Shown here: positions 2,399 to 57,942 of the stretch, in pieces
How the letters are laid out: every line of letters begins with the position of its first letter
Numbering within the stretch: the stretch's first letter is position 1
Notes under the pieces: generated by a model
Databases searched by the model: none
What the model was told of the DNA's origin: nothing
What the model saw: the letters and a program-made list of their open reading frames with translations, nothing else
IMG/VR virus record: IMGVR_UViG_3300049846_001717
Coordinates: 34,056-98,055 of that record
Direction: 5' to 3' (one strand)
Length of the DNA: 64,000 nucleotides
From: a virus
Made by a program: the position numbers and the translations under genes

Positions 2399-2472
2399 CG
2401 CCCCCGGCAGGATTCGAACCTGCACTAATGGAGATTAGAAGTCTCCCTGACTGTCCTGTTGCCGACGGGGGC
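2399..2472 (-). tRNA. tRNA-Arg(TCT)
   Basis: GGAGA-CTTCTAA-TCTCC; GGTTCGAATCC; begins immediately after release-factor stop codon. Confidence 0.92.
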
Positions 2473-3145
2473 TTATTGTAATAGTTCGAGTTGACCTCGG
2501 AGTACGTCTTTCAACCGGACTTTCTTATCCGATCGATGATCGGTGACGATACCGTCCTGTTCCCGATACGTTCGAATCTTATCGCCTCGCATTCCCGAAC
2601 CTACAAGCTGTTTGCGGTCACCATCGGCTTGCCGTTTCGATTGTTCGGCCATATACGTGGCTACTCGATGTTCCAACAGTTCACGAGCAGTACGACGATT
2701 CTGATGTTGACTCTTCTCTGCGGCTTTCGCTTCGATCTTTGTTGGTTCGTGCCGCATGATGACACATGATTCAGTCTTGTTACGATGTTGACCGCCGGGG
2801 CCGGAATCCTTAGTGGTAAACGTCGTAATGTCTGATTCCTTCAATCGCCATGACGCAGGTTCTTTGATCTCAAAGACGGCTACGGTGACGGTTGATGTGT
2901 GAACCCGACCACGACGTTCGGTGGGCGGAATACGTTGCCATCGATGACCACCTGATTCATTCATCAATAATCGGAGCTTTGAATCGGTGCCTTCGATGAT
3001 CAGGTCAAAGACTACCTCGGTTCTCCGAAATCACGGACGCGCCGAGACGAGAGGCAAACGACAGATAGATGTTGGCTTGGTTGGACACGAGCAGTTTTGC
3101 ATCAGTGCCACCTTCACCAGGTCGGATTTCTACGAGGTATTTCAT
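2473..3145 (-). CDS. class I peptide chain release factor, RF1-like (PxT), lacking domain 1; about 223 aa via programmed +1 frameshift at 3004-3010
   Basis: frame 0 (3145-3008) MKYLVEIRPGEGGTDAKLL...RGSL then TGA; +1 frame DLIIEG...NESGGHRWQRIPPTERRGRVHTS...SGPGGQHRNKTES...EKSQHQN...RGDKIRTY. Confidence 0.9.
3004..3019 (-). promoter_or_regulatory. prfB-type +1 ribosomal frameshift cassette
   Basis: CGAGGT-AGT-CTT-TGA-C: internal SD, 3-nt spacer, slippery CTT, UGA-C. Confidence 0.88.
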
Positions 3146-3167
3146 CGAAATTCTCATTAAAGGAAAG

Positions 3168-3244
3168 TGCTCCTAGTGGGACTCGAACCCACACTTGACG
3201 GCTTCTCGAACCGTTGACTCTGCCTGAGATTGGTCTACAGGAGC
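3168..3244 (-). tRNA. tRNA-Leu(GAG), short variable loop, C at position 33
   Basis: ACGGT-TCGAGAA-GCCGT; 5-nt variable loop; GGTTCGAGTCC. Confidence 0.75.
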
Positions 3245-6300: not shown

Positions 6301-6374
6301 TGGACACCACGGGAATCGAACCCGTCACATCGTCATTGCGAATGACAATCGCCACCCTTGGTACATTGGCGCCC
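6301..6374 (-). tRNA. tRNA-Ala(CGC)
   Basis: TGTCA-TTCGCAA-TGACG; G3:U70. Confidence 0.88.
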
Positions 6375-6444
6375 GAGCCCGCAACCGGCGATGTCCCGGC
6401 GAGTTGACCTCCCTTCAACTCTTTCATGCGGCGGATTATTTCAA

Positions 6445-16350: not shown

Positions 16351-18168
16351 TTACTTGCCTTCGCCGATGACGATTTCGACACGGCGATTGAGAGCACGAC
16401 CCTCGCTGGTGTTGTTGTCAGCACGCGGCGCACGTGATCCCATACCAAGAGCACGGAGTCGGCCCGGCGGGAAGTCCGACGGCGACTTCTGTTCCAACCA
16501 CTCCTGTACCGCATTGGCACGAAGCTGTGACAACGCCTCGTTCGTCGCATCACTGCCCACATTATCCGTGTGTCCGTTGATCTGGACATAGGAACCACGT
16601 GCGATAACCAAATGATTGTACAGTTCATTCAATACACGGATCGACTGCGGCGTGAATTCTGCCGATCCGGTTCGGAACGTGATGGTATACGAACCACGAG
16701 CGAACACATTGGTCATCTGTGCGGCGCCTGAGTACGTAACCTGTTCGGCCGAGGCGGTAACCGTCGGCGTCATGGCACGCGCCGCATTCACCGCGCCGAG
16801 ATAGACCACCGATTCCAACGGTGGATAACTCGGATACAAATTCGGATACTGCTGAACTACGATATCACCGAACGTAATGTAGGTCGCGGCGAACGAACCA
16901 TTACGAAGACCCGTCTCCAGGCCGAAGGCATCGATGTTGTCCGCGAGATTGGCAACACGACTTCCGCCGAGTTCCACCATCAATCCCTGTACGTCCTTCT
17001 CTACGACGCCCTTGAAATACTTCTCCCAATACTTGTAATCATTTTCGGCGTAAAGGGCGGCCGACGCCTTCATTGCGGCCGTGAGAGCGGACGGATAGGC
17101 ATTGATCTGATCCGCGGCTTCCCACGTTGCGGCCAACATTTCGGCCACCGCCTGAGTATTCTCCACCGCCACCTTACGGATCATAATGACCGTAGTCGGC
17201 ATCTGCAACGTCCACTGACGGGTAGACGCGATATTCACCAGTCCACCCTTTTGACGGGCCACATTCACATCGCCCGGCGTCCACGTTACCGTGCCGTCAA
17301 CACAAACACGCTTCCGTTCACCGGTACGCTTACCTTCCCGTACCACAGGACGTTCTTCGCAGTAGCCAGCAATGTACTTGGCCGGCGCATCAAGGAAGTC
17401 CTTCGCGTTGACCCAGTTCACAGCGTCCGGATCATAGGTGGTCATGTCCGGGTTGTTTCGAAGGTCATTTGCCTGACTATATCGCATTGCGATATTCCAG
17501 TCACCATCGGGTACATAACCCGAAATCAATGCACCACGCATCGACTGTGGATTATCACGCCAAATCTGCGGTCCCATCAACTTGTCTTCACCGTGTGAGT
17601 AGCCGATGATACCAACAACATTGGCTACGTATTCCGGTCCAATCTTCTCCAACTGTGGATTGATGCCAGCAAGAAAAGCGCCGGCACCGTCACCCATGAT
17701 GGTGACAAACGCCACACCATCCGACTGCGCGGCCCGACCTGCTTCGAGATCGGTCGCGTACTTCAATAGATCCTGCTGCATCTTCGCGACGTCATCCTGT
17801 CGGCGGAGAGACACGTTGACTCCTCGACGTTCGGCGATACTACCCTTCATCGGCACCGCGCCACCAAGGGCACCGATGAGTGCAGCGTTGCCGTTCCACG
17901 CCCAGATTTCACCAGGAATACGAGGCGTGGATAGAGCCGCCGGCACCGAGCTTGGGAGCGGGAGCTGTGCGACCTGTGGTCGGACTCGACGAGTCGTGCC
18001 TGAATCGGTCAACGCCTCGGCCGCGATACGGTTCGGCACCAGCGATGCCATGGTCTGTCCAAGGTATCCGCGTTCCGCGCCGAACTTGATACCGGCGCCG
18101 ATGAGGGCGAGGACGGCGATGAGCCCAAGATTCTTGAGCAACTTGTGAGCCTTCGGAGTTAATGCCAT
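16351..18168 (-). CDS. substrate-binding (NMT1/TauA-like) domain fused to C-terminal OmpA-like peptidoglycan-binding domain
   Basis: N-terminal anchor; INGHTDNVG...NEALSQLRANAV...GRALNRRVEI. Confidence 0.88.
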   Translation of the reverse strand: MALTPKAHKLLKNLGLIAVLALIGAGIKFGAERGYLGQTMASLVPNRIAAEALTDSGTTRRVRPQVAQLPLPSSVPAALSTPRIPGEIWAWNGNAALIGALGGAVPMKGSIAERRGVNVSLRRQDDVAKMQQDLLKYATDLEAGRAAQSDGVAFVTIMGDGAGAFLAGINPQLEKIGPEYVANVVGIIGYSHGEDKLMGPQIWRDNPQSMRGALISGYVPDGDWNIAMRYSQANDLRNNPDMTTYDPDAVNWVNAKDFLDAPAKYIAGYCEERPVVREGKRTGERKRVCVDGTVTWTPGDVNVARQKGGLVNIASTRQWTLQMPTTVIMIRKVAVENTQAVAEMLAATWEAADQINAYPSALTAAMKASAALYAENDYKYWEKYFKGVVEKDVQGLMVELGGSRVANLADNIDAFGLETGLRNGSFAATYITFGDIVVQQYPNLYPSYPPLESVVYLGAVNAARAMTPTVTASAEQVTYSGAAQMTNVFARGSYTITFRTGSAEFTPQSIRVLNELYNHLVIARGSYVQINGHTDNVGSDATNEALSQLRANAVQEWLEQKSPSDFPPGRLRALGMGSRAPRADNNTSEGRALNRRVEIVIGEGK

Positions 18169-52577: not shown

Positions 52578-54803
52578 CTAACGCATCGACGCGATATAGT
52601 CAAGTACCACCTGCCGGTTTCCCGGCACGTTATGGCGGTAGCTATTCGCCCACATGGTTCCGATGAGCTGAAACATGGGAAACTCGTCGATCACGGACCG
52701 ATACGCCTCCGCCATCGTCTGCGGCGGCGTCTTGAGCGTCATCGACTTATGCACCTTCGCCTGATTGGCCGGATCCCGACGCAGGAACCGATTCACCAGT
52801 TCCATCGTCTTGTCCGACTTCGCGGTGTGCGTCCGTTCGCAGACCGTGTGCAGATTCGCGAACAACGGATGCACCTTGCCCAACTGCCAATGCTTGTACG
52901 CCAGCTCATCGAAGTAGATCGCGTCGGCATTGAGCGAGGAATAATAGTAAAACACCGTTTCCCTATTATTCTGCATCCACGATTTCACTTCGGCCTCGAG
53001 CGTGTCCGGCAACGACTTCCACACCGTCGCGTCGAAGTTCGGGATCTCCGCCGACTTGATCCCGTACACGGCCTCCGTGGCACCGAGGATCTTCAGCTGT
53101 CGCGCCAACACGATCATGTCGGTCATGTAGTCGAGACTGATATACCCGTACCGATTGGAGTAGGTGTCCAACGTGAGCGGAACGTAGTAATACATCTTAG
53201 CGCCCGTCGGCACGTTGACGCGAGACTCCCATCGCTGGCTTGCCGTCGAGAACCGATACAACGTGTCCTTGCCGACGCCCCGCAACGACGGCGGCACCTT
53301 GTACCCCGTGAGGGCCGAGGCCTTCACGATGAGATCCGCCGGCATCCCGCCGAAGAAATCCTGAATCTGCGCGTCCGTGATCTTCGTGGACTTGATGATG
53401 ATGGCGTGACCGACCTTGTGCCCGTACCGTGCGGTACGACCGCCCATCGTCTTGTTGACGAGCCGATCGTAGAGCAACGCCTTGGTCGCCGTGACGGTGC
53501 CCTTCGTCAGGTCATCCCGCACCACCACCGTCTCATTGCCCGGCCGCATCGAGATCTTGTCCACCGTCCGCTCGATGATCGCGGACTTGTCGCTGTTCTC
53601 CGTACCGTACACCGTGATCGTCGCCGAGGGGTCCAACGCCTTGAGCGCCTTGAGCGACCGCACCACGCCTTCCGTGTGGTTCACCGTAGACTGCTTCCAC
53701 TGCATCGTCGGCACCACCGACGCCAGGTGCGGGATCTCATTGAACGCCAACATCATCGTGAGCGCCTCCCATTCCGTCGCACACGCCGCGCACGACTTGG
53801 AGACTTCGACTGCCAGCTCCGGCAGTAACGTGGCGATCGCCCGACGAATGGCGTCCACCGTGCGGTCGGTGTATTTCAGATTATCACGCGATGGCACGAT
53901 ATCGACCGACCCGACCGGCAGGAACAGATCGATATGGTTGTACGAGAAGAAATATCGCTTCTCGTAATCGCCGTGATGCACCGCGCGGGGGAACATGGCG
54001 TCCGTCACCTGCACCGTGTACGGCACATTGCCCATGATCACGGTGAGATTGCCGGCGTTCCCGTACGGGTAGTGCGGACGGCGCGGGCGCTCCATCTTCC
54101 GCAGACCCCACCCACCGGCACGAAACTGATACGCGACCGGCTGAATCGGCGTGTGCGTACCTTCGACCGTGAGTGCGATGGGGAAATGCGGCGCGTACTT
54201 ACGCGCGGCCTGATGCACCTTGTCGAGATCGCCACGACGGATGGGGATACGAATGGTGACGCCGGTGTGCGCCATCGTCGGCGTGGACTGCACGTGATCG
54301 AGGCGCGGGACACTATCGGTCCCGATCGCCGCCATGAACAGATGCGACTGTCCATCCTTGCGGGCTTCCACCGTCCACGTTGCACCACCGTTGTAGCAGA
54401 ACGCCGTCTTGGAGCCGAGGCCGAAACCACCAACCTCATCGTTCGATCCGCTCTTGGTGCTCTCACCGTAGGACGTATAGACGTTCCACACGGTTTCCAT
54501 GTCCATGCCGATGCCGAAGTCCTGGAACACCAGCTCCGGTGCCATCGTCGTCGGCAGACTGAGCACCGGCGCCGTGAAGTCCGGCGACTTGACCAGCTGC
54601 TCGATCGTCATCCCACGGACCCGTGCGAGCGCGAGATACGCGTCGTACATATTCGTGAGATATTCTCGCACCATCGCGTCGATAGGATCGGCGTAGAGGC
54701 CGGAGAGCACCGTCATGATATGTGCACCGGCCTTCACCGTGAACGCACGACTGGCCTGCATCCCTGCGGCCGTGACCTTCCGAGCTTCCGTGATGATCTG
54801 CAT
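52578..54803 (-). CDS. rIIA: rIIA-like protein (GHKL ATPase)
   Basis: LY.DPIDAMVREYLTNMYDA; QDFGIGM; YGESTK..SN..VGGFGLGSK; PSRDNL. Confidence 0.88.
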   Translation of the reverse strand: MQIITEARKVTAAGMQASRAFTVKAGAHIMTVLSGLYADPIDAMVREYLTNMYDAYLALARVRGMTIEQLVKSPDFTAPVLSLPTTMAPELVFQDFGIGMDMETVWNVYTSYGESTKSGSNDEVGGFGLGSKTAFCYNGGATWTVEARKDGQSHLFMAAIGTDSVPRLDHVQSTPTMAHTGVTIRIPIRRGDLDKVHQAARKYAPHFPIALTVEGTHTPIQPVAYQFRAGGWGLRKMERPRRPHYPYGNAGNLTVIMGNVPYTVQVTDAMFPRAVHHGDYEKRYFFSYNHIDLFLPVGSVDIVPSRDNLKYTDRTVDAIRRAIATLLPELAVEVSKSCAACATEWEALTMMLAFNEIPHLASVVPTMQWKQSTVNHTEGVVRSLKALKALDPSATITVYGTENSDKSAIIERTVDKISMRPGNETVVVRDDLTKGTVTATKALLYDRLVNKTMGGRTARYGHKVGHAIIIKSTKITDAQIQDFFGGMPADLIVKASALTGYKVPPSLRGVGKDTLYRFSTASQRWESRVNVPTGAKMYYYVPLTLDTYSNRYGYISLDYMTDMIVLARQLKILGATEAVYGIKSAEIPNFDATVWKSLPDTLEAEVKSWMQNNRETVFYYYSSLNADAIYFDELAYKHWQLGKVHPLFANLHTVCERTHTAKSDKTMELVNRFLRRDPANQAKVHKSMTLKTPPQTMAEAYRSVIDEFPMFQLIGTMWANSYRHNVPGNRQVVLDYIASMR

Positions 54804-56052: not shown

Positions 56053-56566
56053 AGACGGAAGGTACTGGGTGGTGTAACGATTGTCAAGTGCTACTTGACG
56101 TTTCGTTACAATCGACGGCGACCATCATTACAGATGAGGATTGTAGTATCGGGCGACGTCACGCGGGAGCACACTCCCAAATTCGTCCTCACGTTCGGTA
56201 TATAGTGCACCGGCACGCTCCACACCGTCCCGTCCCCCGAGCGTATTACGGAATTCGTTGATCAGATTCACCGAATCTTCCAGGTCGGCGATCATACGTT
56301 TGATCTCGTTCCGCTCCCGTCGAAGGGCGCGCAGCATCGCGTTCTTATTCGGCTTTCGCCGATTGACGATGTAGGTCACTTGTTCGACTCCACGATCTTC
56401 TCCGCCCCTTCCTGCAGGGCGAGGCGAACGAGCTCCCGCATGTCGGCGAGATCGATGGGATTGCGACCCGTCTTGAGCTGCATCATGTAATTCTTGACGC
56501 GAGGGGAATCGCAGACGTCTCGCACGATGTAGTCGGGCACGAAATTCTTCATACTGGTGTCTCCGG

Positions 56567-57286
56567 TTATTTGACAAACCCACTGGTGTCACGCTTCGCC
56601 TTGCCCTTCGCCTTGAGTCCGACGATGACGCCGGTATCATCGAGGAATCGCAGGTCCGACTTGTCACCGTCAATGACGGGATGACCGAGGTAGACCTTCG
56701 GCACCTTATGGAATACGGCCGCGACGTTCATCCCATTCTTGAGCGCGGCGATGGCGGCGGGTTCGTTGGACTCCGCGAGGGAGAACGTCAGGTGGTAGTT
56801 CTTCGGAAGATTCCGACGATTCACGATTTTGGTGTAATCGTAAAACTGCACGTCAGGGAACAGCGTCATGAGATTACGAACGGACACGATGCTACCGTCC
56901 TTCATCGTATACTCAATGGGAATCGTCTCCCACCGAATGTCACTGGTCCCGTTCAGTCGGATGGCCGGGGTGAGTCCGTGCTTCGCGGCGAGCTTGACGA
57001 AGTTCGTGATCTCTTTGGCGAGATCAATCATGAACATATCCCGATTTTCGTAAAACATTTTCGTCTTACGAATACGGGCCTTTTGTATCACATTCGTCGT
57101 CTCGCCCGGCTTGAAGATACCGCCACGACCGGCGGTATTGAGACAGGCGGCCGAGCACCCCGCCGTCGCCATGGGACACACATTGTACCCCGACAGACGA
57201 GCCGGCGCAAGGTGGAGAATGGCGGTCAGGTATCCGAACCCCTGGCCCTTCATCGTCTTAGGGTTGCCCGTGGTGAGTAGAGTCAT
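56567..57286 (-). CDS. Gp88-family protein
   Basis: NPKT.K; LAPA...CP.A..GC..ACLNTAGRG; RLNGTSDI.WE; FYDYTK; DGD.SDLRFLD; GLKAKG. Confidence 0.85.
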   Translation of the reverse strand: MTLLTTGNPKTMKGQGFGYLTAILHLAPARLSGYNVCPMATAGCSAACLNTAGRGGIFKPGETTNVIQKARIRKTKMFYENRDMFMIDLAKEITNFVKLAAKHGLTPAIRLNGTSDIRWETIPIEYTMKDGSIVSVRNLMTLFPDVQFYDYTKIVNRRNLPKNYHLTFSLAESNEPAAIAALKNGMNVAAVFHKVPKVYLGHPVIDGDKSDLRFLDDTGVIVGLKAKGKAKRDTSGFVK

Positions 57287-57586
57287 ACACCAAAGATACA
57301 CGAGAACGGGATGGAGTCAAGCGCTCGAGATTTTCGTTACAATCGACGGGTTTTACCGAATATGTGCCCGCTGGACGAGAAACCCGATTACGGATGTCTT
57401 GGTGGACAGCTTGACGATCAGATGACTGTCCTTGCTCGCGACCATACCCAGCGGAGTCGAGATTACCTGATTCGGTGCCACGGGGACGTCGCGGGTGAGC
57501 TTGACAGGCGGAGCGCACCACATCCGACCATCGGATACGTTACGATGCACCGGCCACACGCGCGTCCCCGTGGACACCTTCATCGG

Positions 57587-57826
57587 TTACGCCTCGGCCG
57601 CGACCTTCGCCGGGCGACCACGATGGGTGATCTCGAACATCGCCGGCTTGGCGGTGAGACGGAGATCCGACGCGGGCTCGCCGGCCTTGGCCTGCGGACG
57701 GACGGTGACGAGGCCATCCTTGACGTTCACGACCACGACGCGCGAACCCTTGGAGATGGTCTGGCGGGGGGAAGTGCCGGTGCGGAGCGACTGCGTGGTA
57801 CGAAGGACCTGCTGCGGCTTGAACAT
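57587..57826 (-). CDS. small basic protein with C-terminal AT-hook-like RGRP
   Basis: AGGAG SD; HRGRPAK. Confidence 0.6.
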   Translation of the reverse strand: MFKPQQVLRTTQSLRTGTSPRQTISKGSRVVVVNVKDGLVTVRPQAKAGEPASDLRLTAKPAMFEITHRGRPAKVAAEA

Positions 57827-57942
57827 GCGAACTCCTGAGAAGGAAGGGTGGTTTGGACTACGCCCATAATCTAATACGACCGGCGGAAAAGTCAATAGGG
57901 AATTGTAATTCCAGCTTTTGTTACAATCGACGAGGGACGCTG

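Follow-up and report, generated by a model that had tools for sequence, protein, structure and literature searches.

Frameshifting by +1 at CUU-UGA is the textbook autoregulatory device of release factor 2 (RF2). The locus described here raises the question of whether the same device operates in a virus on a short release factor of the RF1 type and, if so, what such a gate would sense and what it would control. The locus lies near one end of the window, the whole stretch of 64,000 nucleotides that was analysed, which is part of an IMG/VR virus record (98,055 bp, linear, about 45% complete by CheckV) carrying RIIA and a phage GroEL as phage markers. Two minus-strand ORFs are listed at the locus (Table 1), the downstream one starting with TTG. 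The upstream ORF, read from the first ATG given in the table, comprises 46 sense codons, MKYLVEIRPGEGGTDAKLLVSNQANIYLSFASRLGASVISENRGSL, and encodes the start of release-factor domain 2, including the alpha-5 tip motif EIRPGEGG. It ends at a sequence in which CTT is the P-site slippery Leu codon and TGA is the RF2-specific stop, with an SD-like stimulator upstream. When CTTT is decoded in one step, the two reading frames yield a joined protein of 223 aa with the junction NRGSL/DLIIEG, embedded in the peptide ...ENRGSLDLIIEGTDSK... Re-reading of the sequence with CTTT joined reproduced the coordinates, the motif and the junction peptide reported in an earlier note on this DNA, which had also placed a prfB-type cassette at an internal position of the gene. 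This position is confirmed and lies in domain 2, at codon 46 of a protein without domain 1. The bare heptamer CTTTGAC is found 13 times in the 98-kb contig; the present site is the only CTT-stop there to bring together an upstream ORF, a long +1 frame, an SD-like element and a C at +4, and a search across the 98-kb contig yielded no further gene with the same cassette.

Table 1. Positions in the window of the elements of the short release-factor gene and of the tRNA genes on either side of it
Feature	Position	Strand	Remarks
Upstream ORF, as listed	3005..3157	-	ATG 3145-3143; alternative ATG at 3157
ORF1, frame 0	3008..3145	-	codons 1-46, MKYLVEIRPGEGGTDAKLL...NRGSL; aligns with RF1 residues 87-130
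SD-like stimulator GAGGT	3014..3018	-	3 nt 5' of slippery codon; spacer AGT 3013-3011
Shift site CTT TGA C	3004..3010	-	CTT 3010-3008, TGA 3007-3005, +4 C 3004
+1 frame, residues 47-223	2473..3006	-	rest of domain 2, reading head, GGQ, domain 4
Downstream ORF, as listed	2473..2967	-	start TTG
PPT, +1 frame	2928-2920	-	
GGQ, +1 frame	2796-2788	-	
Terminal TAA, +1 frame	2475-2473	-	
tRNA-Leu(GAG)	3168..3244	-	Rfam tRNA model 45.3 bits; missed by ARAGORN; ends 22 nt before ATG
tRNA-Arg(UCU)	2399..2472	-	5' end abuts release-factor TAA, zero spacer

The identity of the joined protein was assessed with NCBIfam profiles, which gave 185 and 174 bits for the two RF1 models (PrfA, TIGR00019 and NF001859), 109 bits for RF2, 67.6 bits for PrfH (TIGR03072) and 33 bits for ArfB. 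Both RF1 scores fall below the curated cut-offs of 400 and 423 bits because the match starts only at model position 107-115, domain 1 being missing. In Pfam, only the C-terminal part of PCRF (positions 102-194) and the RF-1 domain were matched, so that, judged by its sequence, the joined protein lacks domain 1 (about 110 residues). Against solved structures, residues 2-220 align in one stretch with residues 87-314 of Thermotoga RF1 (E 3.5e-38). Since this single RF1 alignment is unbroken, homology crosses the shift site, and RF1 domains 2-4 are colinear with the joined protein. The reading head, HRWQRIPPTERRGRVHTS, retains the PxT tripeptide as PPT and contains residues that we take to correspond to Gln181, His193 and Thr194 of Thermus RF1. 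The tripeptide is thus of the RF1 type and not SPF, whereas the gate codon is UGA. By these motifs the joined protein would be a codon-dependent UAA/UAG factor, predicted to be RF3-independent; the product should not read its own UGA gate, and direct negative feedback should consequently be absent in this gene. Domain 1 is dispensable for stop-codon recognition and hydrolysis (Baranov et al. 2006, PMC1586002); interaction with RF3 needs domain 1, and a truncated RF1 is functional in vivo (PMC1586002).

Profiles, Pfam and alignment therefore bear out the description of the protein, made originally from the letters alone, as RF1-type with PxT and GGQ and without domain 1. That description had left the choice between a UAA/UAG-type and a rescue-type factor; the motifs favor the former, and a rescue role is unlikely with the whole RF1 reading head conserved. 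Membership in the PrfH family was rejected (67.6 bits against a cut-off of 166.65, with RtcB not found in the contig). ArfB/ICT1 membership was rejected as well: the match to the ArfB model is confined to residues 98-133, domains 2 and 4 are present in the joined protein, the codon-reading domain among them, and the basic C-terminal tail was not seen.

Evidence that the shift is programmed came from a survey of homologous loci. The closest relatives were identified in a search of 5.8 billion proteins, and the majority of the nearest database proteins (60-84% identity) are gene calls short at the N-terminus, 163-197 aa long, that cover 72-83% of the joined protein, while those relatives that extend upstream show xFDL(I/V)EG, the reading of (C)TTT GAC in the +1 frame. 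A set of 245 loci from IMG/VR, metagenomes and GTDB genomes, to which the window was added, was classified by script. Among these 246 loci, 100 need a +1 shift at a stop codon (73 TGA, 23 TAG and 4 TAA), 120 carry an in-frame stop (119 TGA and 1 TAG), 10 are uninterrupted, 1 is an odd +2 case and 15 could not be classified. A stop-codon gate within the same short stretch is thus present in about 95% of the 231 classifiable loci. The slippery codon before the stop is CTT in 100/100 frameshift-type loci, and the +4 base is C at 82 of these sites. An SD-like match of at least 4 nt precedes 68 of 94 distinct frameshift sites, most commonly at a spacing of 3 nt (42/68), and is missing at the other 26; at in-frame-TGA control sites a match of at least 5 nt was seen in just 1 of 107, all of these codon-context counts ignoring shared ancestry. 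The SD-like element, with its 3-nt spacing, is peculiar to the frameshift class, and the arrangement SD-NNN-CTTTGAC singled out in the earlier note is conserved to this extent, with the stop codon varying. For the very closest relatives (P0003, P0005 and others), the cassette was deduced from the +1-frame "FDL" reading together with 13 loci gated at the same site as the window gene (site B, see below).

Conservation of the protein extends over both reading frames. ORF1 is about as well conserved as the rest of the protein (57% vs 60% identity in relative L007), and GGQ and the Gln181-equivalent residue are found in 211/211 distinct family members, with PPT in 169 of the 211. These data bear on the view that the locus is a pseudogene, the result of a sequencing or assembly indel, or two genes, one for a small peptide and one for a short factor starting at TTG 2967. 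Automatic gene callers do annotate the downstream ORF alone, as expected of two genes or an indel. However, 100 diverged loci that were assembled independently have exactly this cassette, ORF1 carries conserved domain-2 residues and is conserved like ORF2, and the product from 2967 (164 aa) would have neither the alpha-5 tip nor the initial strands of the domain that reads the codon. Continuous ORFs free of the motif, which had been raised as the finding to expect of a pseudogene or sequencing error, are not the rule among the homologues, being limited to the 10 uninterrupted loci; this contradiction led us to set aside a pseudogene or sequencing error, and we regard the whole group of artifact and two-gene explanations as scarcely credible. 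The gate is under selection throughout the family and, by comparison of the sequences, the frameshift in the window gene is programmed.

The data presented above have led us to propose a model, which we consider probably correct, whereby a +1 slip of the prfB type gates the synthesis of an RF1-type UAA/UAG factor without domain 1. After reading 46 codons, ribosomes would pause, CUU occupying the P site and the weak UGA-C the A site, and the SD-like GAGGT 3 nt upstream would pair with the tail of 16S rRNA. Two outcomes could follow: RF2 would terminate and release a useless 46-aa peptide, or the peptidyl-tRNA-Leu would slip from CUU to UUU, with the remainder of the protein made in the +1 frame. 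The yield of the factor would fall with rising RF2 activity at UGA, the signal by which host prfB expression is likewise set, and the phage supply of UAA/UAG termination would thereby be dosed against the RF2 state of the host. The proposal that the phage makes this factor only during slow termination at UGA goes too far. In normal E. coli, shifting at the prfB cassette amounts to tens of percent, and this leakiness in healthy cells makes a restriction to termination stress an overstatement; a gate that sets dose or homeostasis is as likely as an on/off stress switch.

The stops of the family fall at two sites. Site A lies 30 codons past the [IL]R.G.GG motif and site B, to which the window gene belongs, 40 codons past it; the in-frame stops of the 120 loci are found at A and B as well. 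In the Thermotoga RF1 alignment, site A coincides with the Trp of "KGW", and near-cognate reading of a site-A UGA by tRNA-Trp would restore the normal residue. The base following the in-frame TGA is T in 0/123 cases, and a U at that position reportedly makes termination stronger (PMC5289835). A change of the genetic code in these relatives was considered and rejected, as the gain in ORF coverage on reading TGA as sense (code 4) does not exceed that of the TAG control. A tRNA(UCA) is absent from the flanks of 116 loci, 69 of which have flanking tRNAs, and the other Trp codons of the in-frame-TGA genes are TGG (212 TGG vs 109 gate TGA).

A FastTree phylogeny of 211 distinct proteins gave three clades. 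Clade 1 contains frameshift gates at site A and is rich in Myxococcota genomes; clade 2 contains in-frame TGA at site A and is nearly all viral or metagenomic; clade 3, which includes the window gene, contains site B with both gate types, and its members come from viral contigs and from Betaproteobacteria-linked records (Thiobacillus, a Cupriavidus plasmid, Achromobacter and Methylophilaceae). Members that can be cultivated include the loci on a 306-kb plasmid of Cupriavidus sp. TMH.W2 and on an element of Thiobacillus denitrificans DSM 12475, and more than 500 loci of the family come from metagenomes. The tree requires at least 11 changes of gate type and at least 19 changes of the stop codon inside the frameshift sites. 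The chromosome of Archangium gephyra (L189:5890-6567) carries a frameshift-gated short RF1 among ordinary genes such as those for a glycosyltransferase and an MFS transporter, indicating that the family is not restricted to phages, and the other Myxococcota loci are likewise chromosomal and among ordinary genes, with no obvious prophage surroundings. The earlier note had framed the gene as a phage device; it belongs instead to a large family of phages and Myxococcota chromosomes, nearly all members of which are gated by a CTT-stop or an in-frame TGA. Tripeptides in the Myxococcota clade vary (PPN, PPS, PPG and SPT), which hints at altered codon specificity. Among family members, the tripeptide variants PPN, PPS and SPT do not track the gate codon.

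What the gate senses can be approached through its stop codons. The gate is TAG or TAA in 27 of the 100 frameshift loci, and this, together with the codon changes counted on the tree, means that the family as a whole is not constrained to a specific link with RF2. The cassette had been described as a sensor of UGA termination, and as a family-wide property this does not hold. Terminal stops were compared with those of flanking ORFs, shared ancestry being ignored: TAA ends 91% of the genes in the in-frame class vs 53% of flanking ORFs, and 50% vs 19% in the frameshift class, for which the comparison of TGA with non-TGA terminal stops gave a Fisher p of 4.5e-7 (uncorrected for phylogeny). This enrichment in TAA is consistent with a design that must terminate while the gate is open. 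Avoidance of a member's own gate codon as its terminal stop was not seen in the family.

The lability of the gate codon could also be read to mean that the gate is a fixed attenuator and not a sensor, simply lowering and fixing the output of a factor that does harm when overproduced, with RF2 competition carrying no regulatory information. Free switching among TGA, TAG and TAA and terminal stops without gate-specific avoidance would fit this explanation, as would the observation that overexpression of release factors lowers fitness in B. subtilis (PMC12421855). However, a weak promoter or ribosome-binding site would be a cheaper attenuator, a stop codon is used at all 100 shift sites and a rare sense codon at none, and nearly all in-frame gates are the leaky UGA followed by a base other than U. 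The restriction of shift sites to stops, together with the leaky UGA gates, suggests that the device exists for the sake of competition with release factors. We judge a fixed attenuator unlikely, though a serious rival.

The genomic surroundings of the gene are those of a phage rich in translation genes. The contig encodes 47 tRNAs, a tmRNA and one CUA-anticodon tRNA, and the release-factor gene is placed within this tRNA array, flanked by tRNA-Leu(GAG) and tRNA-Arg(UCU). The tRNA-Leu(GAG), which reads the slippery CUU, has a C in place of U at position 33, and its variable loop is short. A role for it as a dedicated shifty tRNA was considered and found to be unsupported, relatives having no consistent tRNA-Leu(GAG) neighbor. 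Processing of the flanking tRNAs by RNase P and RNase Z would leave an mRNA nearly without UTRs and with its stop codon at the 3' end; such punctuation by tRNAs is seen in few loci only and finds no support as a family feature. An ARAGORN call of a 96-nt tRNA with unassigned identity and a four-base anticodon (acca), at 6301-6396 on the minus strand, could be an intron-containing tRNA, a frameshift-suppressor-like tRNA or a false call.

Two further members of the same array lie outside the window: a tmRNA with the tag ANTALPLAA (G000:C1:24842-25194) and the CUA-anticodon tRNA, which is well formed and of the amber-suppressor type (G000:C1:29531-29602). A UAG suppressor tRNA and a UAG-reading factor thus coexist in one phage. 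Stop recoding in this phage is unsupported, TGA being the commonest stop among ORFs of at least 150 aa. In the contig, the phage genes gave no evidence of TAG in frame, in-frame continuation past stops is not enriched, and the sole candidate for a TAG-interrupted ORF (56498-57838) had no Pfam match.

Large arrays of tRNAs together with tmRNA are typical counter-defence cargo. The array therefore raises the possibility that the short RF1 acts in conflict or rescue, whether as a PrfH- or ArfB-like rescuer, as an RF3-resistant blocker of host termination or as a counter to suppressor tRNAs. Besides its sharing an array with tmRNA and very many tRNAs, in a phage that also has the CUA-anticodon tRNA, the absence of domain 1, as in PrfH, is in keeping with such a role. 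Yet the PrfH score is far under its cut-off and RtcB had no match in the contig, the complete RF1 reading head and GGQ vary little, if at all, among family members, and the ArfB-type C-terminal tail is missing. We consider a role in conflict or rescue improbable, and retain the gated UAA/UAG factor as the preferred reading. A second RF-domain gene, like RtcB, was not found in the 98-kb contig of this record of about 45% completeness.

Elsewhere in the window, minus-strand genes encode a phage GroEL (11653-13272; PHROG 5725, E 8e-178), a RIIA-like protein (52578-54803), a BCS1-like AAA ATPase (553-1935) and a 605-aa protein with a C-terminal OmpA domain (16351-18168). Between about 20000 and 46000, just short ORFs (about 100-260 aa) occur on both strands under any stop assignment tried, and this stretch either holds many small genes or is largely non-coding.

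Taken across the family, the gated factor may be part of a cross-wired termination circuit, in which the gate would read the release-factor load of the host and set the supply of a minimal, RF3-independent RF1. As the gate, some members would use a +1 slip at CUU-stop and others a leaky in-frame UGA, presumably decoded as Trp, and gate types and gate codons would have been swapped repeatedly among phages and Myxococcota chromosomes. The phage studied here, through the cassette that host prfB also has, would track host RF2 homeostasis, with the factor providing UAA/UAG termination for phage genes rich in TAA stops. In this full form the proposal is tentative, its chances being slightly below even.

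Published surveys place programmed frameshifting of this kind in prfB. It was shown for prfB and not for prfA in a 2025 survey of more than 12,000 genomes, which identified no persuasive example in prfA (Prince et al. 2025, PMC12421855) and in which TAG occurs in the prfB motif in 0/8164 genomes (PMC12421855). The GeneTack analysis has prfB as its sole release-factor cluster (PMC3711429), and a review of release-factor evolution mentions neither phages nor frameshifting (PMC6514570). Papers on huge phages and on recoded phages list phage RF1 and RF2 and do not mention a gate. A prior description of a gated short RF1 was not found in the literature searched, in which subscription journals are mostly lacking. 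We thus found no prior paper describing the prfB device on an RF1-type factor, at a new position and in a virus; it has been published for bacterial RF2 only.

The family is of interest in several respects. Relatives with TAG gates and those with interchangeable in-frame UGA gates offer naturally occurring variants through which the signal sensed by the gate can be explored. Most database entries of this family are truncated or split gene calls, a matter for annotation, and the translation toolkit of large phages gains a regulated termination factor. For synthetic biology, the family may be a source of compact release factors that do not depend on RF3, and of portable sensors for the activity of release factors.

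Among known systems, PrfH (RF-H) is likewise a release-factor paralogue without domain 1; its reading head is altered and, to our knowledge, it is always paired with RtcB. Unlike PrfH, the joined protein keeps the RF1 reading head, and its contig yielded no RtcB. The phage RF1 of "Jade" phages, proposed to boost UAA/UAG termination (bioRxiv 10.1101/2021.08.26.457843), is also an RF1-type factor encoded beside tRNA genes. The "Jade" code-change module, itself reportedly in standard code and gate-free, serves phages that read TGA as Trp (bioRxiv 10.1101/2021.08.26.457843), whereas neither the phage studied here nor its in-frame-TGA relatives give any sign of TGA being recoded beyond the gate. 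Canonical RF1 (PrfA) is the best-scoring family and shares with the joined protein the tripeptide, the reading head, GGQ and domains 2-4; unlike PrfA, the joined protein is without domain 1 and scores under the cut-offs, and its gene is gated by recoding. The shift site of prfB lies at about codon 26, in domain 1. It is described as early in the gene (PMC12421855), and its cassette has in common with the present one the SD-like element, the 3-nt spacer, CUU, UGA and the C at +4 (PMC12421855; PMC3711429). As with prfB, the product is a class-I release factor and the cassette is conserved across diverged homologues. Unlike prfB, the gene is of the RF1 type (185 bits vs 109 for RF2) with its site in domain 2, at codon 46; relatives may have TAG or a plain in-frame TGA as the gate; and by its motifs the product should not read its own gate codon, which would make the system cross-wired and not autoregulatory.
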